Source: Candidatus Berkelbacteria bacterium
Lineage (GTDB): Bacteria > Patescibacteriota > UBA1384 > DTJR01
NCBI GenBank assembly: GCA_026397175.1
Contig: JAPLVK010000021.1
Span: forward strand, 1-53,259
DNA: 53,259 nt
Direction: 5' to 3'
Below the pieces are notes generated by a model. The model was not told where the DNA came from. It saw only the letters and a list, made by a program, of their open reading frames with translations, and searched no databases. Position numbers and translations under genes: made by a program. Shown here in pieces: positions 1,330 to 48,867 of the stretch (positions are counted from its first letter, which is position 1; each line of letters starts with the position of its first letter).

Positions 1330-2064
1330 TTATTGAGTAACTGTGGTTGCAGAAGTGCTCGCAGTTGTGCTTGCGGAAGTGGACTCGGTTTGTTCGCTTA
1401 GCATATTCTGGCCTTCAAACCCGGCCATTGTTACGAGCCATTTTGTATCCCAAGTGGCAATTGTAGTTCGCCCGACTTGGGTTGCAGTTAAACTATTGGT
1501 TTTGCCGCTATCAAGAAGGGCCTGATAAGATGCCACAAAATCCGATGGTTGAGCGGGCGGAGTTGTCATACATTTAATCTGATCTTTATAATCCCGTCTC
1601 GCCGCGAAAAGTCGCTGTTTTTGATTATTTTTTAGAGCGTCAAAAGAGACCACCCAGTAATAATCCTTCGACAATTCATCTGCGTAAAAGAAAAATGATT
1701 CTTTGGGATAAGTTGTTACAAACGGTCCGACATACTCCGTGATGACGCCACAGTATTTGGCCTTATTTTGCAGCGAGGTATTTGCATCTTGAAGGGCAAC
1801 TTGATAATTTTTTTGAAAATTTACGGAAATTTGGCTGGCATCAGAAATTTTCATTGTCGGGCCAGTTGCCACATTGCCGGTGCCACCCGTTGGGGCTACG
1901 GAGGATGTGCCAGAAGTTGCGCTCTGCGAAATATCTGCCGGTGGTGAGACCTCGGAGACAGCGACATTTCCGGTGGTTGAAGTTGATTTTGGTGTACAGC
2001 CAACCAAAAATAGACCCGTTGAAGTAATTAACGCTAAAATTATAAGTTTGTTAAATTTTCCCAC
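1330..2064 (-). CDS. Putative lipoprotein
   Basis: Basic N-terminus, hydrophobic stretch, LVGC lipobox, S/T-rich linkers. Confidence 0.7.
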   Translation of the reverse strand: MGKFNKLIILALITSTGLFLVGCTPKSTSTTGNVAVSEVSPPADISQSATSGTSSVAPTGGTGNVATGPTMKISDASQISVNFQKNYQVALQDANTSLQNKAKYCGVITEYVGPFVTTYPKESFFFYADELSKDYYWVVSFDALKNNQKQRLFAARRDYKDQIKCMTTPPAQPSDFVASYQALLDSGKTNSLTATQVGRTTIATWDTKWLVTMAGFEGQNMLSEQTESTSASTTASTSATTVTQ

Positions 2065-2147
2065 AATTTCATTTTACCATGTTTCAAAATTGTCCGAAAC
2101 AAAAACCCGAGAAGCGGCTCCCGGGTCTTTGTTTTAATCGAATCAAT

Positions 2148-4067
2148 TTACTCTTTTTTGTCTTTCGACTCCTGCTCCGGCTCTTCTTTCGACTCTTCTT
2201 TCTCTTTGTCATCCTCCGGCTGCTTGTCGGCCTCTGGCCGATCTTCCTTTTTCTCATCTTTACCTGCGGCGCCGTATAATTCTTGCCCGACTTTTTGAAT
2301 GGTTTCAGAAAGCGTGTCAGCCGCAGCTTTTATCTTTTCGGTATCATCATTTTTAAGCGCCTCTTTGACGGCGTCGATTTTTTCGGTTACTTCTTTGCCG
2401 GTTTCTTGTTTGACTTTATCACCGGCATCCTTGAGCGCTTTTTCGCTCGAATAAACAAGTGTTTCGGCCATATTTCGCACTTCTACCGCTTCTTTTTTCT
2501 TTTTATCTTCCTCGGCGTGCGCCTCGGCGTCTTTGGTCATTTTTTCAACTTCCTCTTTGGAAAGCCCGCTTGATGCCGTGATGGTAATTTTTTGCTCTTT
2601 ACCGGTGGCTTTGTCCTTGGCTTTGACATTTAGAATTCCGTTCGCGTCAATGTCAAAAGTAACCTCGATTTGCGGAACGCCGCGTGGTGCCGGTGGAATT
2701 CCATCGAGAATAAATCGGCCGAGCGTTCGGTTGTCTTGGGCCATTTCGCGCTCACCTTGCAAAACATGAATCTCAACTTGTGGCTGATTGTCAGCGGCGG
2801 TCGAAAAAACCTGCGATTTAGACGATGGAATGGTCGTGTTTCGGTCAATTAGCCGAGTCATCACAGAGCCCAGCGTTTCAATTCCTAGTGATAACGGGGT
2901 AACATCAAGCAAAAGCAGATCTTTGACTTCGCCGGTTAGAACTCCGCCTTGAACTGCCGCGCCAAGCGCGACCGCTTCGTCGGGGTCAACGCCCTTTGAT
3001 GGTTCTCGTTCGAAAATCGCTTTTACTTTATCGGCAACTGCCGGCATTCTGGTCATTCCGCCGACTAAAATTACTTCTTTAATGTCTTTGGGTTCAACAC
3101 CGGCATCTTTCATCGCGTCCTTGCACGGCTTGACGGTTTTTTCGATTAAATCATCAACCAGAGAAAGCATTTTGGCGCGAGTCAATGGCATCACGAGATG
3201 TTTCGGTCCGGAGGCGTCGGCGGTAATAAACGGAAGATTTATTTCGGTCTCTTGTTTTGAGGATAATTCGGTTTTGGCTTTTTCTGCCGCTTCCTTAACT
3301 CTTTGCAGGGCCGAAGCATCGCTCGTTACATCAACGCCGCTTTCTTTTCTGAACTCTGTTACGATATAATCCATGATTTTCTGATCGAAGTCGTCTCCGC
3401 CGAGATGCGTGTCGCCGTTCGTGGCTTTGACCTCAAAAACATCGCCACCGACTTCTAAAATCGTGATGTCGAAAGTTCCACCTCCAAGGTCAAAAACGGC
3501 AACTTTTCCTTCGGCCTTTTTATCGAGTCCGTAGGCGAGGGCTGCCGCGGTTGGCTCGTTAACAATTCTTTTGACATCGAATCCGGCAATTTTTCCGGCG
3601 TCTTTGGTGGCCTGGCGTTGGGAGTCGTTAAAGTAGGCCGGCACGGTGATGACCGCTTCGTCCACTTTTTCTCCCAGGTAATCTTCGGCATCTTTCTTAA
3701 TTTTTTGCAAAATGAATGCGGAAATTTCCTGCGGCGTGTATTGCTTGTCGGCGATTTGCACCTCGACAGAATCGTTTTTGCCTTCTTTGATTTTATAAGA
3801 CATCAGTTTTGTGTCGCGCTTTACTTCTTCATCATCAAAGCGGCGGCCGATTAGTCGCTTTACCGAAAAAACGGTGTTTTCCGGATTGGTAACCGCTTGT
3901 CGTTTGGCGAGCTGGCCGACGAGGCGCTCGCCGGATTTGGTAACCGCAACCATGGACGGAACGAGTTTTCCGCCCTCGGCCGAGGGGATGAGTTTGGGTT
4001 TTCCACCCTCAATCACCGCCGCCGCCGAGTTGGTTGTCCCTAAGTCGATACCTATTACCTTACCCAT
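2148..4067 (-). CDS. dnaK: Chaperone DnaK (Hsp70)
   Basis: [25 protein letters not shown] and GIPPAPRG motifs; 639 aa. Confidence 0.99.
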
Positions 4068-4255
4068 AGAAGCTCCTTTTTAAATTGAATTGCTAATATC
4101 TAAATTATCAAAACAAAAATAAATTGTCAAGTGTACTTTACATTACGAAATTAGACAATCAGGTAAATAATTAGATTACTTCAGTTAATTCGATTAATTC
4201 GGTCAATTTATTTAAGTTTGTTTGGTAAATTTAGTCAATCCGGTTAACCCAAGAA

Positions 4256-4291
4256 TTTGCGCATTCTATCCGATCGGACAGAATGCGCAAA
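4256..4291. repeat. CGATCG-centred palindrome, family A copy 1
   Basis: TTTGCGCATTCTATCCGATCGGACAGAATGCGCAAA, one mismatch between arms. Confidence 0.95.
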
Positions 4292-4312
4292 AAAGAGAAT
4301 CAATCAGATTAG

Positions 4313-4936
4313 TCAGATTAGATTAAACTTTTCTTTTAGTGCCTCATTATTATCGATTTTTTCAGCAACGATGTAGTTAACATACTGTTCGATTTGGTAA
4401 ATTGAGGCGATGAAATTAATTTCATTTTCGCATTCATAAGGACTAGCCCAAACACTTTTTTGAAGCCGCAAAAATCCTATTTCTCGTAACTTATCTCGTA
4501 AAACTCGTCTGGCTAGCCGATACTTTTCTGGAACATCAAAAATTACAATTCGCCATTTTCCGTCCCAATCCTGTTGACAAATAGAGATCGTGTCAATATT
4601 GTATTCGATCAGTCGTTTTCGTCCTTTATTGGTAATTTTGAGATATTCTTTGCCATTTTTTTCGACAATTTCGATTAATCTATCTTTGAAAATTTTGTTA
4701 TTAAATTTATCTAAATCTTTTTCGGAAAAATTTCGACGAGATTTTCTAAATAATGGTTTGAGAGCTTGCCATGCATTGGGCGAGGTCATAGCCACTGCAA
4801 TTAAAGTTCCAACCGCTGCGTATTTGAGTGCAACAACGGCATACTCCTTAAAAATCTCCTTTTGATCTTCATTGAGCCGAATTGTGTAAATCCGCTTTTT
4901 CTTGATAATTTTGGTTCCAGGCATTTTTTTATTCAA
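4313..4936 (-). CDS. PaaX-like protein (wHTH plus Cas2/VapD-like domain), paralogue 1
   Basis: ITNKG wing motif followed by WDGKWRIVIFDVPE...LREIGFLRLQKSVWASPY. Confidence 0.85.
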   Translation of the reverse strand: MNKKMPGTKIIKKKRIYTIRLNEDQKEIFKEYAVVALKYAAVGTLIAVAMTSPNAWQALKPLFRKSRRNFSEKDLDKFNNKIFKDRLIEIVEKNGKEYLKITNKGRKRLIEYNIDTISICQQDWDGKWRIVIFDVPEKYRLARRVLRDKLREIGFLRLQKSVWASPYECENEINFIASIYQIEQYVNYIVAEKIDNNEALKEKFNLI

Positions 4937-4984
4937 TTTTTATTACTGATATTATCGTCAATATTATTTTAATCCTTTATGGCA

Positions 4985-5022
4985 ATTTGCGCAAATTGTC
5001 CGATCGGACAATTTGCGCAAAT
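4985..5022. repeat. CGATCG-centred palindrome, family A copy 2
   Basis: Perfect 38-bp palindrome ATTTGCGCAAATTGTCCGATCGGACAATTTGCGCAAAT. Confidence 0.95.
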
Positions 5023-5248
5023 AGTAGATAAAAAGCTTGGGAACAATCAATAGATTGGAAATAATCAATAGAAATATTTACCCGCCAATGACGATAGTTT
5101 GGGCATCGGGCTTGTTCGGTATGCCCCCACACCAAATAACGCAAAGGCAAGTTCATAAAATTTATAAAATATCTGGTGTGGGGGTAAATGATAGTCGACG
5201 GAGTAAGAGTCGATGGTGGGGTGGGGACTCCAATAGGGAAGCAAGAGA

Positions 5249-5467
5249 TTATCCAGAAATATCGTCTTTTTTGAGTCCCGCTTCTCGTAGAATAGAAAGA
5301 AATGTTCCTTTGGGTAAACTTTTTAGATGAAAGGGTATAACTGCTCTTTTGCCTGTTTTTGGATTTCTAAATATACGATGGCTGCCGGTAGTGTGATCCA
5401 GCTCAAACCCAAATTTCTTTAATACCTTAATAAGTTCCTTGGGTGTGAGGACGGGCAATTTAGGCAT
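5249..5467 (-). CDS. hicA: HicA-family toxin
   Basis: MPKLP...ELIKVLKKFGF...TGSH...VIPFH...LPKGT...IL; overlaps the hicB stop. Confidence 0.9.
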   Translation of the reverse strand: MPKLPVLTPKELIKVLKKFGFELDHTTGSHRIFRNPKTGKRAVIPFHLKSLPKGTFLSILREAGLKKDDISG

Positions 5468-5714
5468 AAGTTTTGCTTTTGGGAGTAGCAATTTCTAGGT
5501 CAACTGATGTAATAAAATTGGTATCATCGGTGGGAATTGGCTCTTTGTGCTTATTTAAACTGGCGACATAGCCATTGATAGCATCATAAGCGTTCTTTTT
5601 GGCTTGCTCTAAATTTTTTCCATAAGTAATACAGCCGGGCAAACTTGGCACCATTACTGTGTAACCACCTTCGGGCTCGGATCTAAAAATGAGGTTATAA
5701 TGTATTCTTTTCAT
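5460..5714 (-). CDS. hicB: HicB-family antitoxin (short form)
   Basis: EGGYTVMVPSLPGCITYGKNLEQA motif. Confidence 0.9.
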   Translation of the reverse strand: MKRIHYNLIFRSEPEGGYTVMVPSLPGCITYGKNLEQAKKNAYDAINGYVASLNKHKEPIPTDDTNFITSVDLEIATPKSKTYA

Positions 5715-5754
5715 GGTCTGATATTATCAAACATACCCTAGTACTGTCAATTAT

Positions 5755-5807
5755 TGCGCCATTTTCGCCCCCGCCAGAGGCGGGCAGGGATCGGCGAAAA
5801 TGGCGCA
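5755..5807. repeat. CGATCG-centred palindrome interrupted by a 19-bp hairpin element
   Basis: Removing 5770-5788 (CCCGCCAGAGGCGGGCAGG) gives the perfect palindrome TGCGCCATTTTCGCCGATCGGCGAAAATGGCGCA. Confidence 0.85.
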
Positions 5808-5818
5808 GAAAATATAAC

Positions 5819-5854
5819 TTTGCGCAAATTGTCCGATCGGACAATTTGCGCAAA
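5819..5854. repeat. CGATCG-centred palindrome, family A copy 3
   Basis: 36 bp identical to the core of copy 2. Confidence 0.95.
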
Positions 5855-5896
5855 TAGTTAGAGAAAATTCAATAAATAAAATAAAAACAGATTACG

Positions 5897-6961
5897 CTAC
5901 TGTATTACTGCTGTCTGAGCAACTGGCTTGTTCGGTTTGACTTCGGTGTGGTAGCCGACGGAGTAGGAATCAACGGTGGGGGTAGAAGCCCCATCGGTAT
6001 TAGAGAGTGTTGTCTCGACTTGCAAATACCGGTATTTCGTTTCGCCAGAGCGGGAAGTAACTAATCCCGAAATATCCAAAGCATTTCCCGATGTTGGGGT
6101 TTGAACTGCTGACCAAGGGTCAGTCCAATCGGTTCCATTTACCGATGACCTGAATCTATATGTTACAGCTGTAGTACCGGGTGTAACTGTTTGAGTCGGC
6201 GTAAATGTCTGCCATTGCCAGAAGTTGGCACCGCCGTCGATTTGAGTGGAGGCGGAGGTGTGGGTGGCGGAAACACCAGAGTAATCCGTTAATTCCCGTA
6301 TTGACATACCACTCATGTACCCCAAAGTATCTATGACGCGTATCTTGCTTATCTGCAAGTGAGGATCAGGAAGATATATATAAGAGTATGTCAAACCCAT
6401 GGTATCCAAATTTCCGTGGAGTGCATTACATTCAAACGGTGTTTCCGTACATGTTATGTGATCAGAAAATAAGTCCACCCAGTTGCCTCCGTCCCAATAT
6501 TGAGCAGAATATTTCCATTCAATGGATATATGAGGTACCCAAATCTCTAAATACAACGCAATCTTTGAAACTTCAGTAGTGGTGCTATAATCGTGTATTA
6601 CATATTTACCCGCATCGCCCGAATTAAGATTAAAAACTGTGCTTAAATCATTATCGTAGACATTAGTAAGGAGCCATAACGGTGGATTGTCTGCTTTATT
6701 TGATGACCATGTGCCGATATTGTTTATCGAATAAAAAGTTTTTGTATTTATTTTTATTGATCCTGGCGTTGAAGATGAATCAATATTTGTGACAGGTCCA
6801 GCCTCCCAATCCGCCTGTGAGGTTATTTCTTTATTCGTGCTAGCCGCTAAAATGTTTTTTGTGTTTTTATGTGTTGAATAGAAAACCGTTCCCAAACCAA
6901 TTATTAGGATCAGGAAAACTATAACAATTAAAACAAATTTTCTTTTGGCAAAAAAACGCAT
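5897..6961 (-). CDS. Membrane-anchored/secreted protein, possible discoidin (F5/8C)-like central domain
   Basis: N-terminal TM helix; NVYDNDLSTVF and QYWDGGNWVDL motifs; beta-rich, S/T-rich. Confidence 0.7.
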   Translation of the reverse strand: MRFFAKRKFVLIVIVFLILIIGLGTVFYSTHKNTKNILAASTNKEITSQADWEAGPVTNIDSSSTPGSIKINTKTFYSINNIGTWSSNKADNPPLWLLTNVYDNDLSTVFNLNSGDAGKYVIHDYSTTTEVSKIALYLEIWVPHISIEWKYSAQYWDGGNWVDLFSDHITCTETPFECNALHGNLDTMGLTYSYIYLPDPHLQISKIRVIDTLGYMSGMSIRELTDYSGVSATHTSASTQIDGGANFWQWQTFTPTQTVTPGTTAVTYRFRSSVNGTDWTDPWSAVQTPTSGNALDISGLVTSRSGETKYRYLQVETTLSNTDGASTPTVDSYSVGYHTEVKPNKPVAQTAVIQ

Positions 6962-7115
6962 TAATTACACACTAATTTGTTTACCAGATTCTATTATACA
7001 GCTTTTTAAGGGCAACGAAAAAGGACTTCCTTCTTGGGTTTGAACCAAGTAATCTCCCGAGGGAGAAAAGCCCACATTAGATGCGAGCAAGGAAGTCCAG
7101 AGATCCCTCGGTTAC

Positions 7116-7592
7116 TCAACCGAAGGTTATATTAATCCATACCGGCGTTCTGCCGATGTTTCTTATCACCGTCCCTTCTACTACATCCATCACGAATGTA
7201 GGATTTGCGCACTCCACCCGCCGCTTGCCCACGAGGACCAGCAACGGATAATTTTCGAACGGCTCCAACTTGATTGTCTTTGCGGAGACATGGAAGACAC
7301 AAACGCCTCCGCTAGCCAACCCGCCGTTTCTGACTGTCTCAGTCAAGTCAAGACGGTCGTGATAGTTGAGGGCAGCGTTGAAGTGGTAGGACTTGCGAGT
7401 GGTGGGATTGAAAACCCCGTGCTCACAGAACCCCTCACTCGTGTACTCCAACACACCACCCTTCCAAATCACCGCGGCGGAGTTTCCCTCTATTCTACGG
7501 GAAAACCCGTCTTCATAGATACCCTGCGGTTTGTTGTTGATCAGGGTCTCGGTGTCGTAGACCTCGATCTTCCTTCCCCTCGTGATCGCCAC
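7116..7592 (-). CDS. Hypothetical protein
   Basis: 158-aa ORF, same strand as and overlapping the end of 7541-8242; higher GC than the backbone. Confidence 0.55.
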   Translation of the reverse strand: MAITRGRKIEVYDTETLINNKPQGIYEDGFSRRIEGNSAAVIWKGGVLEYTSEGFCEHGVFNPTTRKSYHFNAALNYHDRLDLTETVRNGGLASGGVCVFHVSAKTIKLEPFENYPLLVLVGKRRVECANPTFVMDVVEGTVIRNIGRTPVWINITFG

Positions 7593-8242
7593 AAAACGGC
7601 TATTCTTCTCGCCGTTTTGACCTTCCCAAAACCGCTGGGTCGGACCAGAGCTATCCAGTTGAGGGCACGCCCTCTCTTGGACAGCAGCCGAAGAACCCTA
7701 TGCGCATCCCATGCACTGATCACCACCTGCTCGACCTTGATGGCTGGTTTGGGGGTAGAGGGTGAGGGTGGCGGATTGGGGGTTGCTCCGGGAAGTTTCA
7801 GCCATCCGATCTCATAGCTTCCCGTAGACCCTCCATCCATTGCACTCTCGCCACCAACTCGCACCCACCCATCCTCCTTTTCCCACACCCGCTTCATCAT
7901 GGGTTTCCCGAAGGCAGTGAAGCAGACACTTTGTCCGACCGTCACATCATCCACCTTTTTGATGGGAATGACATGAACGACCGTTAGCCCCCTGAAGGTG
8001 TTGCCGTAGCTTCCCCCGTATGACGGATACCACCCAAAGGGGATACCCGCGAACGGTGAACACACTACTATCAATGTGCCCAGGATGATTTTCTTCGCCG
8101 TCCCGGGTTTTATGTCTGGATTGATCTTCACAGTTTCACGCTCCTTCAAAGTGCGTTCGGTGATCCCGCCATACGGCGGGATAAAACGCCCCGGAGGGCG
8201 TGTTGTTCCAACCCGAATCGAAATAATATACCACCTTGACAC
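7541..8242 (-). CDS. Hypothetical protein, possibly S24/S26 peptidase-like; true start probably near 8133
   Basis: TM segment then GGSYGNTF...MMKRV...VRVGGES, loosely like the S26 S..PT / KRV / GDN boxes. A predicted promoter at 8225-8253 overlaps the annotated 5' end. Confidence 0.5.
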   Translation of the reverse strand: MSRWYIISIRVGTTRPPGRFIPPYGGITERTLKERETVKINPDIKPGTAKKIILGTLIVVCSPFAGIPFGWYPSYGGSYGNTFRGLTVVHVIPIKKVDDVTVGQSVCFTAFGKPMMKRVWEKEDGWVRVGGESAMDGGSTGSYEIGWLKLPGATPNPPPSPSTPKPAIKVEQVVISAWDAHRVLRLLSKRGRALNWIALVRPSGFGKVKTARRIAVLWRSRGEGRSRSTTPRP

Positions 8243-8253
8243 CTGTTTGTCAA
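8225..8253 (-). promoter_or_regulatory. Sigma70-type promoter
   Basis: TTGACA-17 nt-TATATT on the minus strand, with a TG extension. Confidence 0.6.
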
Positions 8254-8397
8254 TGCGATAAAATCAGTTTAATCATGAGGGAGAAACGAACGCTTGACTA
8301 GGTGTCATGTCGCAACGCCTCCCACTCGAGAAGAATTATATCAGAAAATCGCAAACATATCTGGTATTTCAAAGTTAATAAGTATAGCAAAAGTACT

Positions 8398-8613
8398 ATG
8401 AGCCCACAAATAGAAAAACAAATTCTGGAAAAGCTTGAGCGGATTGAAGATCTGCTTGTTAAGTTTGTGCCTTATCAATCGGATCTTGGCGAGGAAGAAG
8501 TACTTAAAATTGTAAGCGAAGGTCGTGAAACGCATAAGGCAGATAAGACCCGCGATTTCGACAAATTTATTTTAAAAGAATATCCCCATTTGGTCTTAAA
8601 AAAAGCTAAATGA
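8398..8613 (+). CDS. Putative antitoxin
   Basis: Small ORF (MSPQIEKQ...) with a 4-nt ATGA overlap to the RelE-like toxin. Confidence 0.7.
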   Translation: MSPQIEKQILEKLERIEDLLVKFVPYQSDLGEEEVLKIVSEGRETHKADKTRDFDKFILKEYPHLVLKKAK

Positions 8614-8876
8614 AAATTCGGTCTATTAAGGTAACGCCAAGATTTGAAAAGTCCTTTTCGAAATTGCCAGTAGAAATTCAGAAGGCAACAATTATAAAGA
8701 AAAAGGCATTCGTCAGAGATCCTTTTGCGCCAGATCTTAAGACCCATAAATTATCCGGAAAGCTAAAAGGGCTGTGGTCTTTTTCTGTCTCGTACTCCTA
8801 CAGAATTTTGCTTGAATTTGATAGGGACGACAGAGTTCTCTTTCACGATATTGGCGATCACAGGGTTTATCGCTAG
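8610..8876 (+). CDS. RelE/YafQ-family mRNA interferase toxin
   Basis: TPRFEKSFSKL...LKTHKLSGKLKGLWSFSV..SYRI...DIGDH..Y. Confidence 0.9.
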   Translation: MKIRSIKVTPRFEKSFSKLPVEIQKATIIKKKAFVRDPFAPDLKTHKLSGKLKGLWSFSVSYSYRILLEFDRDDRVLFHDIGDHRVYR

Positions 8877-8883
8877 ATTATTA

Positions 8884-9357
8884 CTACTCTGCTACGACGA
8901 CGCGGGCGGGGCGGATGAGAGAGTCGGCGATTTTGTAGCCGGGGCGGGCGAGGCGGATGATGGAGTGCGATTTGATTGATTTATGTTTTTTGTCGGTCGC
9001 GGCCGTTACGACTTCAACGGCCTCGTGGAATGCTGGATCGAATGAATCGCCGATTTTCGGCTCGATTTTCTCGATACCAAGTTCGCGCAGTGTCTCGTCA
9101 ATTTGCTTGGCGACAATTTCGACTCCCTGAATCCAGGAATTTTCCTTGAGGTCTTGCGGGACATGAAGTAATGTTAAATGTAAATTATCCAAAACCGGCA
9201 ATATTTTTTCAAATGTTTCAGTGCGCGCCGACTCACTCCAGCGCTCCTTATCAGCCGAAACTCTTTTCTGAAAATTATCAAAATCGGCTTGGCAGCGTTG
9301 CCAGCCCAGCTTTAGTTCGTCGTTTTGTTTTTGCAGTTCGTGAAGTTTTTTGTTCAT
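8884..9357 (-). CDS. grpE: Nucleotide exchange factor GrpE
   Basis: QADFDNFQKR, LPVLDNL, FDPAFHEAV, GY...IRPARVVV. Confidence 0.97.
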   Translation of the reverse strand: MNKKLHELQKQNDELKLGWQRCQADFDNFQKRVSADKERWSESARTETFEKILPVLDNLHLTLLHVPQDLKENSWIQGVEIVAKQIDETLRELGIEKIEPKIGDSFDPAFHEAVEVVTAATDKKHKSIKSHSIIRLARPGYKIADSLIRPARVVVAE

Positions 9358-9421
9358 TTGTAAACCGAGACGATTTTACTTTAAAATAATGGGTTTGTCT
9401 AGGCGGGCTTTGCCGGAAAGT

Positions 9422-9456
9422 AGATTTCTCCACTCGAGTACTCGGTCGAAATGACA
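9422..9456 (-). repeat. TGTCAT...AGAAATCT-type intergenic repeat
   Basis: Reverse complement TGTCATTTCGACCGAGTACTCGAGTGGAGAAATCT resembles 27875-27912. Confidence 0.55.
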
Positions 9457-9472
9457 AAAGAATCCAAACCAG

Positions 9473-10063
9473 TTATTGTGTTGGATCGCCCGGGACCGGA
9501 GGAGAAAGAATGGAACTGTTAGTTGAAGTTGACGAGGAAGTCGCTGTCTCGGTTGCCGTTTCGGTCTCGCTCGGCTGCGCAGTTGTGTAAGTGCTCGGTA
9601 CAGTCAAATTCGGATCGGGCGTAATAATTTGCTGCGTTGCCGGCGGAGATCCCAAATCAAGTACAAATTTGCCGACATCATTAACTTGATCGTTTTTCAA
9701 GGTAACTTCCGTCGCAGTCAGATCAAAATTTCCCAAATTTGAATCAATTGTCAAATCGTAAGCACCGGCCGGAATTTTTCTGATATACCAGTCAACCGTA
9801 TTTAGCCCCGGGACCGCGAAAGAAAACGATCTATCTTTAAAAAAATATTTTTTGCCGCCACTAACCGGTGTAAAAACCGCTTTGACCGGCACGCTTTGAA
9901 CTTGAGGAACGGTGATTTGCAAGGAAAAATGTGCGGTCGAATACCCGGGCACAATCGTGTCGGCTTGAATTTTTTGCTGATATGCCAGCGCGCCAATTCC
10001 CAAAACGCCAATCGCCAAAAGCGCCGCTACAGTTACATTTGCAATTTTTTTTGAACCGATCAT
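9473..10063 (-). CDS. Secreted/membrane-anchored hypothetical protein
   Basis: N-terminal hydrophobic helix, beta-rich middle, S/T/P-rich tail. Confidence 0.75.
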   Translation of the reverse strand: MIGSKKIANVTVAALLAIGVLGIGALAYQQKIQADTIVPGYSTAHFSLQITVPQVQSVPVKAVFTPVSGGKKYFFKDRSFSFAVPGLNTVDWYIRKIPAGAYDLTIDSNLGNFDLTATEVTLKNDQVNDVGKFVLDLGSPPATQQIITPDPNLTVPSTYTTAQPSETETATETATSSSTSTNSSILSPPVPGDPTQ

Positions 10064-12442: not shown

Positions 12443-12458
12443 GATTAGCTTGTGATTG

Positions 12459-12494
12459 TTTGCGCATTTTGTCCGATCGGACAAAATGCGCAAA
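12459..12494. repeat. CGATCG-centred palindrome, family A copy 4 (solo)
   Basis: Perfect TTTGCGCATTTTGTCCGATCGGACAAAATGCGCAAA, 16 nt after the MBL stop. Confidence 0.95.
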
Positions 12495-12689
12495 TAATAT
12501 TGAGGTTTGATGTTGATTGGGGGGCTGACTAATGGATGTAACTGTGTGAAATTTAAGGTTCATTTGCCACTTTTATACGATCGTATCAAAGTGGCAAAAG
12601 GTAATAAGTATAAAAGTTGGTGCTTGGGTCTTAAATTGCTGGTGAGTAAAAAGTAATGAGTATAGAATCCATAAAATGATTTTTAAAAG

Positions 12690-14183: not shown

Positions 14184-14917
14184 TAGGGGACGGTTCTCTT
14201 TTGACCTGAAGTTTCGGCTTTTTACTATGCATGCTATAATTATTTTATGCCAAGATTGCCTCGCCACCTTTTGTCTCAAAGTTTCTACCATATTATGACC
14301 CGTGGCAACAATAAAAATGTTGTTTTTAAAACGGCCGCTGATTTCGATTACTACCTGGAACTTATATCAAGATACAAAGAGCAGCACCCTTTTGATCTCT
14401 ATCATTACTGTTTAATGCCTAACCATACACATTTTTTAATTAAGACCAGAAACGGTGCCGATTTCTCGATTTTTATGAAAAAATTGAATCTGGCTTATTT
14501 TCACCATTTTAAAAAATTTTATGGCTGGGTAGGACATTTTTGGCAAGATCGTTTTAAAAGCCAGGCCGTCGGTAAAGATAACTACTTTGTTCAGTGTGGC
14601 AAATATATTGAGCTTAACCCGGTACGAAAAGGGCTCATCTATAAGCCGGAAGAATGGCAATATTCTAGTTATAAATATTATGCCGAGGGGCGAAGCGATG
14701 ATTTGATAACGGCTGACTTTCTCTATGAAGATTTGGGCGGCAATTCGCAAGGTCGGCAGAAGAAATATTCCGACTTACTGATTGATGATATTGTTGGTGA
14801 GTCCTATCGAAAAATGGTTTGGGGAAGCGATCATCAGCGATATAACGAAAGACAGAAGGTGAATCGAATCGAAAGGAAAAAGCCGAATGAACAGGAGAAA
14901 AAGAGAACCGTCCCCTA
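14184..14917. mobile_element. RAYT element bounded by 19-bp perfect inverted repeats
   Basis: TAGGGGACGGTTCTCTTTT (14184-14202) and AAAAGAGAACCGTCCCCTA (14899-14917). Confidence 0.8.
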
Positions 14918-14918
14918 G
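14247..14918 (+). CDS. REP-associated tyrosine transposase (RAYT, Y1 HUH)
   Basis: MPRLPR, YHIMTRGNN, YCLMPNHTH (HUH), GHFWQDRFKS, YIELNPVR, WQYSSY. Confidence 0.92.
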   Translation: MPRLPRHLLSQSFYHIMTRGNNKNVVFKTAADFDYYLELISRYKEQHPFDLYHYCLMPNHTHFLIKTRNGADFSIFMKKLNLAYFHHFKKFYGWVGHFWQDRFKSQAVGKDNYFVQCGKYIELNPVRKGLIYKPEEWQYSSYKYYAEGRSDDLITADFLYEDLGGNSQGRQKKYSDLLIDDIVGESYRKMVWGSDHQRYNERQKVNRIERKKPNEQEKKRTVP

Positions 14919-27929: not shown

Positions 27930-27961
27930 TGTACAAATTTCTCGATCGAGAAATTTGTACA
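27930..27961. repeat. CGATCG-centred palindrome, family B (solo, perfect)
   Basis: TGTACAAATTTCTCGATCGAGAAATTTGTACA. Confidence 0.95.
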
Positions 27962-28029: not shown

Positions 28030-28080
28030 TGCGAGGGTCCGTCCCTCGCACATAGTTCCTGCGAGGGACGGACCCTCGCA
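28030..28080. repeat. REPIN-like inverted doublet of 21-bp imperfect palindromes
   Basis: TGCGAGGGTCCGTCCCTCGCA, 9 nt, then its exact reverse complement. Confidence 0.85.
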
Positions 28081-28206
28081 ATGAATTAAGGGTTAGTTGG
28101 CAATTATTTTAATATACAATTTTTCCGTACAGAAAAATTGTATATTAAATTGAATCCGTAAAATAAATATTTTTTAAATTTCAGTTTTCTAGAAGGTTTT
28201 AAAATG

Positions 28207-48247: not shown

Positions 48248-48279
48248 TGTACAAAAACCTCGATCGAGAAAATAGTACA
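48248..48279. repeat. CGATCG-centred site, family B (downstream of PaaX-like 2)
   Basis: TGTACAAAAACCTCGATCGAGAAAATAGTACA, 2 nt from the stop codon. Confidence 0.92.
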
Positions 48280-48281
48280 CG

Positions 48282-48827
48282 CTATAAGTTAAATCTTTCT
48301 TTTAACTTTGTATCGTCATCTGTTATGTCGCTTTTGGCATTAAAAAAAGAAACATATTTTTCAATGCCAAGCTCTCTCCTTAGCTGATCCAGGGCCTTAA
48401 AATCAGCATAGGGCGAAATAAAAACACTATTTTGAATTCCGACAAAGCCCTTTCGCTTTAGAATCGACCTGAAAATATCCCTTTGCTTTCTTTTTGATTC
48501 CGGAATATCATAACTGATAATTTTCCAATTTCCATCCCATCCGTTACTCGACCAATCGTTCTGTTCAATCTTAATTCTATTAATTTTATTTATAGCTTTT
48601 GGTGTAATTAGAAACTGGTCGTCATTAATTTGGCGAATGTAACCATGCCGACGCAAGCCATAAAAAGCTGATTGATATTGTTCGCTTTTCAGATGCATAT
48701 TTTTTCCGAGTCGACTGGCTGATCCGGCGCTAAATAAAAAGGCCTCCGTATAATCCGCTGTGGTTTCGAGTATCTCGCCAGTAATTTCTAAAAGCAATCT
48801 AGTAGCATTTGATATTTTCTTTTTCAT
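48282..48827 (-). CDS. PaaX-like protein (wHTH plus Cas2/VapD-like domain), paralogue 2
   Basis: LRRHGYI...ITPKA; WDGNWKIISYDIPE...RDIFR..LKRKGF..IQNSVFISPY. Confidence 0.85.
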   Translation of the reverse strand: MKKKISNATRLLLEITGEILETTADYTEAFLFSAGSASRLGKNMHLKSEQYQSAFYGLRRHGYIRQINDDQFLITPKAINKINRIKIEQNDWSSNGWDGNWKIISYDIPESKRKQRDIFRSILKRKGFVGIQNSVFISPYADFKALDQLRRELGIEKYVSFFNAKSDITDDDTKLKERFNL

Positions 48828-48835
48828 ATTTATAT

Positions 48836-48867
48836 TGTACAAAAATCTCGATCGAGAAAATAGTACA
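48836..48867. repeat. CGATCG-centred site, family B (upstream of PaaX-like 2)
   Basis: TGTACAAAAATCTCGATCGAGAAAATAGTACA, a direct repeat 31/32 identical to 48248-48279. Confidence 0.92.

Follow-up and report, generated by a model that had tools for sequence, protein, structure and literature searches.

Long palindromes bracket short PaaX-like genes in Patescibacteria: candidate cognate sites of a winged-helix, Cas2-like protein

Genes set between palindromic DNA sites are known from several systems. Dif/Xer modules and integron cassettes consist of short genes, often toxin-antitoxin genes, enclosed by palindromic sites whose central region is short. Here we analyze a stretch of Patescibacteria DNA, the window (contig C20:1-53259, 53,259 nucleotides, of the assembly G000, which is metagenome-derived, 93% complete, and comprises 1.01 Mb in 27 contigs), in which a gene for a short PaaX-like protein, termed mini-PaaX, lies between two copies of a long palindrome. 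The layout resembles the pairing of repetitive extragenic palindromes (REPs) with REP-associated tyrosine transposases (RAYTs). In the sections of PMC2817692 that describe this pairing, the RAYT gene is single-copy and closely flanked by its own palindromic repeat, copies of which are also dispersed and clustered in intergenic DNA in the manner of bacterial interspersed mosaic elements; the palindrome is kept intact by complementary changes, the repeat diverges along with the protein, and several paralogue-repeat pairs coexist per genome. REP heads are GTAG or CGTC in the part of PMC3733652 that deals with them. The protein itself recalls PaaX, the phenylacetyl-CoA-responsive repressor of Escherichia coli and Pseudomonas. 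E. coli PaaX acts as a repressor at its own promoter and has TGATTC-N27-GAATCA, a pair of widely spaced inverted half-sites, as its binding site, and its middle domain is described only as a dimerisation motif in the relevant sections of PMC9493321. An earlier reading of the window (the original prediction) knew of no account of such a locus, and none was found in literature searches on PaaX with Cas2-like, Patescibacteria or Candidate Phyla Radiation. The literature on intergenic palindromic repeats of Patescibacteria, surveyed by title and beginning of the abstract with supplementary files outside the search, likewise yielded no description of a palindrome-bracketed mini-PaaX. Our preferred explanation, held with moderate confidence and drawn from sequence comparison, is that the palindromes are cognate binding sites of an autoregulated mini-PaaX dimer, organised like REP/RAYT modules.

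The motif TGCGCA-N7-CGATCG-N7-TGCGCA occurs exactly at 4258-4289, 4988-5019, 5821-5852 and 12461-12492 of the window. This count of four compares with a mean of 0.02 in 100 dinucleotide-preserving shuffles, none of which reached four, and the whole 1.01-Mb genome holds 12. When their flanks are included, the window matches are palindromes of 36-44 bp with zero or one mismatch. Three of them lie in the interval between grpE (8884-9357) and dnaK (2148-4067; dnaJ is at 531-1193), where the order is site, PaaX-like gene, site, hicA and hicB, interrupted site, site, with mini-PaaX, hicA, hicB, dnaK and grpE all on the minus strand (Table 1). The original prediction had described this motif, this gene order and a solo copy near 12459, and coordinates, shuffles and Pfam matches agree with it; the interrupted site is equally real.

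The bracketing is general in the genome. Eight genes with a PaaX_M domain were found in G000, seven short (175-207 aa) and mutually 24-54% identical, and one longer, of 235 aa (C12:62752-63459). Each of the seven short genes has an own-family palindrome on either side, about 10-110 bp from the open reading frame (ORF). For four genes this was established by the strict scan, and for three, in which one or both copies are imperfect, by reading the flanks or by pattern. No such palindromes occur in the flanks of the longer gene, a type present about once per relative among the 31 genomes compared (G000 included). The closest paralogues (49-54% identity) also have the most similar outer boxes, namely TGCGCA, TGCCGC and TGCAC. 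The mini-PaaX genes stand alone, with no conserved neighbour, and are not beside paa genes. The original prediction, which found a copy downstream of the gene hard to explain as a simple autoregulatory operator, was right that this copy is not a simple operator.

The arrangement recurs in other Patescibacteria. The sample consisted of the best 80 loci of at least 582 relatives (at least 600 candidates, from species-representative genomes). Most of these loci are labelled as Patescibacteria-group and a few bear another phylum label or none; some may belong to genomes within the 30 relatives of the genome comparison, and as this overlap was kept the analyses are not fully independent. Palindromes with arms of at least 12 matched bases numbered 59 in the 34,956 bp within 200 bp of ORF ends (1.69 per kb), 18 in 191,340 bp of remoter flanks (0.094 per kb) and one in 43,391 bp inside ORFs, so that their density at gene ends is 18 times that further out. 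Upstream centres are mostly 10-90 bp ahead of the start codon and downstream centres 10-85 bp past the stop. A second measure was the best ungapped repeat common to the two 260-bp flanks of a gene, which could be determined at 77 loci, three having too little flank. A shared repeat of at least 16 matched bases was found at up to 62 of the 77 loci compared with 2 of 70 control pairs of windows placed 640-900 bp out, and one of at least 20 matched bases at 45 compared with 1. Of 23 genes, 19 have two copies that differ at no more than 3 of 15 arm positions; between genes the median difference is 10 of 15. Arm distance is correlated with protein distance (Mantel r 0.256, a value reached by none of 2000 permutations; locus L053, which contains stop codons, was left out of the protein alignment), and shared descent contributes to this correlation. 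Centres vary by lineage (CGATCG, GCATATGC, GCTATAGC, GCAATTGC, CCATGG, TCATGA). By comparison of sequences, then, the idea that the sites are cognate to the winged-helix, Cas2-like protein is strongly supported by the seven bracketed paralogues, the 18-fold density and the Mantel correlation; the palindromes are far commoner beside PaaX-like genes than elsewhere, as the original prediction expected. No relative was found on viral contigs. Metagenome contigs contained three distant relatives (47-58% identity), one of them palindrome-flanked and none close enough for a comparison of insertion sites.

A genome-wide scan for long palindromes gave about 47 sites of one design in G000, 32-44 bp in length and falling into about nine arm families of 1-12 copies each. 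The centre is CGATCG in most sites and CGACCG/CGGTCG or GTAC in a few. The arms are 16-18 nt long with sharp ends and follow, from outside to centre, the consensus TGCRC-W5-N3-CGA; the families include TGCGCA.., TGCAC.., TGCCGC.., ATCGCAC.., CGTGTAC.., CTATAAC.., TTCGACTA.. and ATATAC.. arms. Over the 47 sites, the arms are complementary in 85-100% of cases at positions 1-16, where a single position can show as many as four kinds of Watson-Crick pair; complementarity drops past position 18, and shifting the partner by one base destroys the pairing. Variation within a family is symmetric, in a compensatory manner, the copy at 4258 having TTCTrTC in both arms and that at 4988 AATTGTC in both. 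The 4256-4291 palindrome as single-stranded DNA has a predicted fold of -14.8 kcal/mol (z -6.5). At least two families (GTAC centre; ..CTCACGACCG..) are without a gene in this assembly, and in the related genome G007 a gene is flanked by GTAC-type palindromes. A degenerate consensus pattern matched 24 sites in G000, 5 in G007, 3 in G016 and none in the 28 other relatives. The hexamer CGATCG was seen 342 times in the genome against 322 expected, and most of its 48 intergenic occurrences proved to be palindrome centres when compared with the site list. Two candidate roles were rejected. For the centre as a restriction site, CGATCG is neither avoided nor enriched; as intrinsic terminators the palindromes fail in that no T run follows the stem, the T-rich stretch lying inside the 5' arm and A following the stem. 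Rfam matched no family apart from one tRNA.

Many copies stand away from any mini-PaaX gene. The 19 classifiable intergenic regions with solo copies only comprise 9 convergent, 6 tandem and 4 divergent ones, compared with 96, 498 and 100 of the 694 intergenic regions genome-wide (classes were assigned from longest ORFs of at least 100 aa by greedy selection). Their placement, mostly between convergent genes, means that the solos are no ordinary operators. Several convergent regions contain two to four palindromes of different families beside ordinary GC-rich terminators. Some sites are also unusual in form. The longest palindromes in G000 are centred exactly on standard 32-bp sites (C7:14546-14625, 80 bp without mismatch; C20:115501-115628, 128 bp with two). 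In the loop of the interrupted site of the window, an inserted 19-nt GC-rich hairpin separates the C from the GATCG of the centre and is followed by GATC, and a second interrupted site, G000:C21:5559-5644, has a 50-nt insert at the same position. Both inserts start with CC(C/A)GCC and end with GGCAGG. In sites beside genes, G-T arm mismatches number 54 on the outward-running strand and 25 on the other (25 and 8 upstream, 29 and 17 downstream), a modest bias that we take as a hint only. Target-site duplications were not evident by eye, with no formal test applied.

The family-A protein (ORF 4313-4936) matches PaaX_M (PF20803, E 5.8e-24, 84 bits against a cut-off of 24) and, more weakly, Cas2 in Pfam. 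The TIGR01573 cas2 model scored 26.1 bits, just above its cut-off of 24.5, for family A and 29.8 for family F, and the TIGR02277 PaaX model 36.3 bits against a cut-off of 264.55. The PaaX_C and Pfam PaaX N-terminal models had no match in the family-A protein. At 203 aa its chain ends directly past the Cas2-like domain, so that the ligand-binding domain of PaaX is missing. The AlphaFold2 model, built with 83 sequences, has a mean predicted local distance difference test score (pLDDT) of 77, exceeding 90 in the Cas2-like half, and residues 51-97 form helices followed by a beta hairpin. E. coli PaaX (8a39) was the best Foldseek match (E 6.6e-4, 140 columns over the winged helix and central domain), Cas2 structures occupied ranks 2-10, and VapD was among the subsequent matches; profile matches to the winged helices of MarR, TubR and AspA were weak. 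The 83 sequences show no variation at six residues, W120, D121, D130, Q155, S157 and P162, and D130, which follows the first strand, is presumably the counterpart of the catalytic aspartate of Cas2. Homodimer predictions scored 0.02 and 0.05 and were used neither for nor against any reading. In databases these proteins are labelled 'Cas2' ('CRISPR-associated endonuclease Cas2'), 'PaaX' or 'hypothetical', and for mini-PaaX both the Cas2 and the PaaX labels are misleading.

The mechanism that we propose would work as follows. Mini-PaaX, which joins a winged helix of PaaX type to a Cas2-like dimerisation domain and has no ligand-binding C-terminal domain, would read 32-36-bp palindromes throughout the Patescibacteria. 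In a dimer seated on the palindrome, the two winged helices would read the variable outer boxes (TGCGCA), leaving the conserved centre (CGATCG) on the dyad; a dimer with widely spaced winged helices would fit a palindrome of 32-36 bp with outer boxes 20 bp apart. The upstream copy, at or beside the promoter, would probably serve autorepression. The pair would mark off one module of about 0.7 kb, whose parts come and go together. Extra copies, and copies of gene-less families, lie as solos and mixed clusters in intergenic DNA, mostly between convergent genes. The architecture with its statistics and spread, the co-divergence and the symmetric arm variation are seen directly in the sequences; binding, autoregulation and any contribution of the protein to the spread or upkeep of palindromes are what we infer here.

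Compared with REP/RAYT, mini-PaaX is likewise bracketed by its own palindrome with other copies dispersed, and the clustering of solos, the complementary arm changes, the co-divergence and the presence of several gene-palindrome pairs per genome are further points of likeness. The proteins, however, belong to unrelated families, a winged helix with a Cas2-like fold in one case and an HUH Y1 transposase in the other, and no catalytic activity is known for mini-PaaX. Its palindromes are perfect and loopless, without a GTAG/GTGG or CGTC head, and its genes are patchy among relatives whereas RAYT genes are mostly vertical. With PaaX, mini-PaaX shares the winged helix and the central PaaX_M domain, but it is about 180-205 aa long, as opposed to about 305-316 aa. 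The neighbours of the window genes are dnaK, hicBA and hypothetical genes in place of phenylacetate catabolic genes, and the sites lie on both sides of the gene and dispersed, with outer boxes 20 bp apart, not 27. The likeness to Cas2 and VapD consists of a C-terminal domain that passes the NCBI cas2 cut-off and matches Cas2 structures, together with associated palindromic repeats. The differences are the fused winged helix, the lack of a Cas1 gene (no match to PF01867 in the 93%-complete genome) and repeats that amount to two flanking copies plus solos, with no spacer array, for which no separate search was made.

The numbers of short genes among the 31 genomes are uneven: seven each in G000 and G007, about eight in G022, about five in G020, four in G016, one or two in several others, and none in G002-G006, where only weaker hits in frames of 235-258 aa, similar to the longer gene, were found. 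G005 and G007 belong to the same genus and have none and seven, respectively. In G007, the strict scan found five of the seven genes bracketed on both sides; of the other two, one has a strong and a weaker copy and one has none. At one syntenic site (L166), G007 has about 848 bp that comprise a gene with a palindrome on either side, and the equivalent stretch of G005 is about 108 bp long and lacks a palindrome; the site is bordered by a conserved non-coding stretch (94% identity) and a conserved gene with its promoter. A second comparison of these genomes (L169) is not clean because the gap contains different membrane genes. The family-B modules of G000 and G007 align from palindrome to palindrome (78% over 739 bp), with upstream palindromes identical and downstream ones nearly so, and the DNA outside is unalignable. 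The only recent duplicate, G000:C15:123347-123760, repeats 415 bp of the family-D module (C7) at 98% identity, from the upstream region through the palindrome to codon 84 of the gene; unrelated DNA follows, and the copy ends at the contig end. Either part of the module was duplicated recently or the copy represents a strain variant.

Several observations weigh against a REP/RAYT-like organisation of cognate sites. REPs exceed 100 copies, compared with 1-12 per palindrome family here. A neighbour gene is common to both family-B modules within 2 kb, so their likeness may reflect vertical descent under strong constraint and not transfer, and as the seven genes are only 24-54% identical, with no near-identical full-length copies, there is no sign of recent transposition of a whole module. 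No excision or inversion joint was found at the module, and contigs of an independent study (DNA runs X5, X7 and X8) keep the same arrangement, although rare variants are invisible in contigs. All joints on contigs of the 2000-9500 region fall within dnaK; their sides are short, and other organisms are their probable source. A few of the shared repeats at the 62 loci are low-complexity matches, which makes 62 of 77 an upper bound, and the strict scan finds a palindrome beside just 46 of 83 genes and on both sides of 23. For the mini-PaaX gene of the window itself, a consensus scan found no sigma-70-type promoter overlapping the palindrome. Gene calls for context were crude (longest ORFs), the genome is an incomplete metagenome assembly, and the relatives are kin and not independent samples.

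Among the alternatives, the one that fares best is that mini-PaaX is a plain transcription factor with a regulon, a repressor that also controls its own gene, the upstream palindrome being its operator, the downstream one serving loops or roadblocks, and the solos being operators of other genes. We regard this as a real possibility, if an unlikely one. It agrees with the PaaX family as presented in the corresponding sections of PMC9493321, where these proteins are autoregulated repressors acting on widely spaced inverted repeats. It also agrees with the position of upstream centres 10-90 bp ahead of most start codons, with the TATAAT or TAGAAT that directly follows GCATATGC centres in some lineages and the GATAAT box 20 nt past the palindrome of the family-B module, and with the promoter-like site of hicBA directly after two A-type sites. 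A transcription factor would not, however, account for solo regions that are convergent in 9 of 19 cases, with no promoter there, compared with 96 of 694 genome-wide, nor for the frequent position of downstream copies opposite a convergent gene. If one protein read specific bases, the symmetric arm changes within families would be left unexplained, and the 80- and 128-bp palindromes centred on sites, the orphan families and the lack of a conserved neighbour to regulate argue in the same direction.

A second alternative treats the palindromes as crossover sites with a 6-bp overlap and arms bound by protein, as in Xer/dif or integron attC recombination. Arms of 13-16 bp around a 6-bp centre do resemble the sites of tyrosine recombinases such as dif. 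In this scheme a circular module would enter and leave, the solos would be attachment sites or scars, and the recombinase would be a host enzyme or mini-PaaX as the arm-binding factor. The short gene between palindromic sites with a short central region, the centre common to most families of a genome and different between lineages, the local order of site, gene, site, hicBA and site, and the filled and empty versions of one syntenic site within a genus would all suit such cassettes. One tyrosine recombinase is encoded in the genome, but its gene is on another contig and near no module. The contigs of the three DNA runs show no junction, the empty site in G005 retains no solo palindrome, and asymmetric centres (CGACCG and CGGTCG) have no constant relative orientation, being direct or inverted depending on the module. 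There is no adjacent integrase, and the perfect palindromes lack the asymmetry of attC-type sites. The bracketed gene is nearly always mini-PaaX itself, only 2 of the 80 loci having another site-like palindrome at a distance of over 200 bp from it. We therefore consider recombination cassettes improbable, and the suggestion in the original prediction that the sites delimit mobile cassettes with cargo is not borne out by so rare an occurrence. The empty single-site allele that it proposed to look for between grpE and dnaK did not turn up either. This spacer (window 4068-8883) is 4.8 kb long in G000, with the family-A module and hicBA, and is a variable hot spot of 0.5-4 kb with unrelated content in seven relatives of the same family; as those spacers have neither module nor solo palindrome, but other DNA, there is no clean empty allele.

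It is comparably doubtful that mini-PaaX is a structure-specific nuclease, whose active Cas2-like domain would nick or cut a cruciform or hairpin at C^GATCG and whose palindromes would be selfish or mobile, being copied, perfected and extended. The invariance of D130, Q155, S157 and P162 in 83 of 83 sequences could speak for catalysis, but conserved residues may be structural, and the corresponding domain of E. coli PaaX is given only as a dimerisation motif in the relevant sections of PMC9493321. A cas2 score above the cut-off and palindromes extended to 80 and 128 bp around sites would also suit a nuclease. Interruption between C and GATCG by inserts ending in GGCAGG speaks for it as well; nevertheless, just two sites are interrupted, and no gene is multi-copy. 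The excess of G-T mismatches on the outward strand (54 compared with 25) is modest and could be mutational.

The last alternative separates the palindromes from the protein, making them REPs moved by the two IS200-like Y1 transposases (PF01797) of the genome or, otherwise, RNA hairpins or terminators. One Y1 gene is in the window (14247-14918, plus strand, 223 aa), and G007 has a homologue of it, 70% identical, in the syntenic position. The other is G000:C15:59946-60275. Although many palindromes lie 13-60 bp past stop codons and their hairpins are stable, this explanation is largely refuted and very improbable: neither Y1 gene is flanked by palindromes, G016 has palindromes and mini-PaaX without a Y1 match while many relatives have Y1 genes without a pattern match, no T run follows the stem and ordinary GC-rich terminators exist besides, upstream copies precede promoters, Rfam gave no match, and the palindromes flank mini-PaaX across the 80 loci.

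Patescibacteria genomes are tiny and have little spare DNA, and still about 47 long perfect palindromes and seven dedicated genes are kept in 1 Mb, in a layout of gene between two palindromes that amounts to at least hundreds of loci across the phylum (at least 582 relatives). If mini-PaaX does nothing more than bind, these loci would provide a large and unusually clean natural set of proteins and sites for studying how specificity evolves. If the palindromes are also processed, they would represent a second, independent invention of the REP/RAYT lifestyle, with a bearing on the origins of the association of Cas2 with repeats. In the most far-reaching form, a new class of palindrome-propagating element, a winged-helix-targeted protein of Cas2 fold would recognise its own palindrome as a cruciform or hairpin, nick it at C^GATCG, and copy, perfect and extend palindromes. 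This we put forward only tentatively, as more probably wrong than right by some way; such an element would be a Cas2-fold analogue of REP/RAYT and possibly a living relative of a stage that tied Cas2 to palindromic repeats. The palindromes also have a practical side. Many database homologues are on contigs of 0.6-1.3 kb, and public contigs of the locus (3973-5829) end at palindromes; assemblies evidently break at these palindromes, which fragments metagenome-assembled genomes.

Table 1. Mini-PaaX genes, palindromes and neighbouring features in the window
Feature	Position	Strand	Remarks
Family-A palindrome, downstream copy	4256-4291		22 bp past mini-PaaX stop; one arm mismatch; ~190 bp upstream of dnaK start
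Mini-PaaX gene, family A	4313-4924	-	203 aa from ATG; 207 aa from TTG at 4936 (ORF 4313-4936); PF20803
Family-A palindrome, upstream copy	4983-5024		Centre ~79 bp ahead of mini-PaaX ATG
Degenerate duplicate of the 3' end of ORF 5897-6961	5085-5245	-	From alignment and ORF translations
hicA toxin gene	5249-5491	-	PF07927, E 4e-19
hicB antitoxin gene	5460-5714	-	PF15919, E 3.9e-9
Promoter-like site for hicBA	5721-5750	-	TTGACA, 16 nt, GATAAT; 11/12 matches; consensus scan only; directly downstream of interrupted palindrome
Interrupted A-like palindrome	5755-5807		Arms 15 nt each, 23-nt loop
Family-A palindrome, third local copy	5819-5854		32-bp core identical to 4988-5019
Solo family-A palindrome, TTTT subtype	12455-12498		13 bp past stop of comEC-like metallo-beta-lactamase-fold gene
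Solo palindrome, other family (TTTGCCAC...CGATCG...)	12561-12600		65 bp from the 12455-12498 solo
Solo family-F palindrome	27930-27961		Convergent intergenic region
Solo family-H palindrome, GTAC centre	28106-28151		Same convergent region as the 27930 solo; no cognate gene in assembly
Family-F palindrome, downstream of second mini-PaaX	48248-48279		Flank reading and consensus pattern
Second mini-PaaX gene, family F	48282-48827	-	181 aa; cas2 TIGR01573 29.8 bits
Family-F palindrome, upstream of second mini-PaaX	48836-48867		Flank reading and consensus pattern

Around the family-A module, the hicA and hicB ORFs overlap at 5460-5491 and form one HicAB toxin-antitoxin operon. Sites 5755 and 5819 directly precede the promoter-like TTGACA-16-GATAAT of this pair. 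The degenerate duplicate of the 3' end of ORF 5897-6961 adjoins the palindrome at 4988 just as the intact 3' end adjoins the copy at 5819, which suggests that hicBA was probably acquired through, or as part of, a 'palindrome plus gene end' duplication. As an extra site-like palindrome beyond 200 bp is so rare among the 80 loci, the location of hicBA between sites is a local feature. We regard hicBA as a neighbour whose promoter happens to adjoin two A-type sites, outside the general module, and it may be co-regulated. The only exact RNA-library contig on the 2000-9500 region is 169 nt long, has a depth of 3.5 and covers 5170-5307 (RNA run X10). In the grpE-dnaK spacer of G006, there are two tandem homologues of ORF 5897-6961.

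On the other side of the module, the copy at 4258 is simply its downstream bracket; the dnaK promoter lies about 130 bp beyond it and has a conserved palindrome of its own. This is the imperfect TTGTCAAGT-GT-ACTTTACA at 4124-4142 of the window, over the inferred -35 region of dnaK. The form TTGTAAAGT-N3-4-ACTTTACA is found upstream of dnaK in six of the seven same-family relatives and once more in G000 (C3:43499). The palindrome is a candidate heat-shock operator, and it is unlike CIRCE.

Other repeats were noted in G000. A GC-rich inverted pair of 20-21 nt lies beside palindrome clusters at 28030-28080 of the window and at G000:C25:11252-11309. A 17-nt inverted repeat with a 46-nt loop is present in four copies (C20:111718, C27:51, C3:3087 and C25:276), and there are several 'AAGTTyATAAAGT' arrays, with AAGTTCATAAAGT-like words. 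Finally, the tetranucleotide ACGT is nearly absent from G000 (45 occurrences where about 1207 would be expected, a ratio of 0.037), hexamers that include it have counts of 1-3, and this depletion suggests strong restriction pressure on ACGT.

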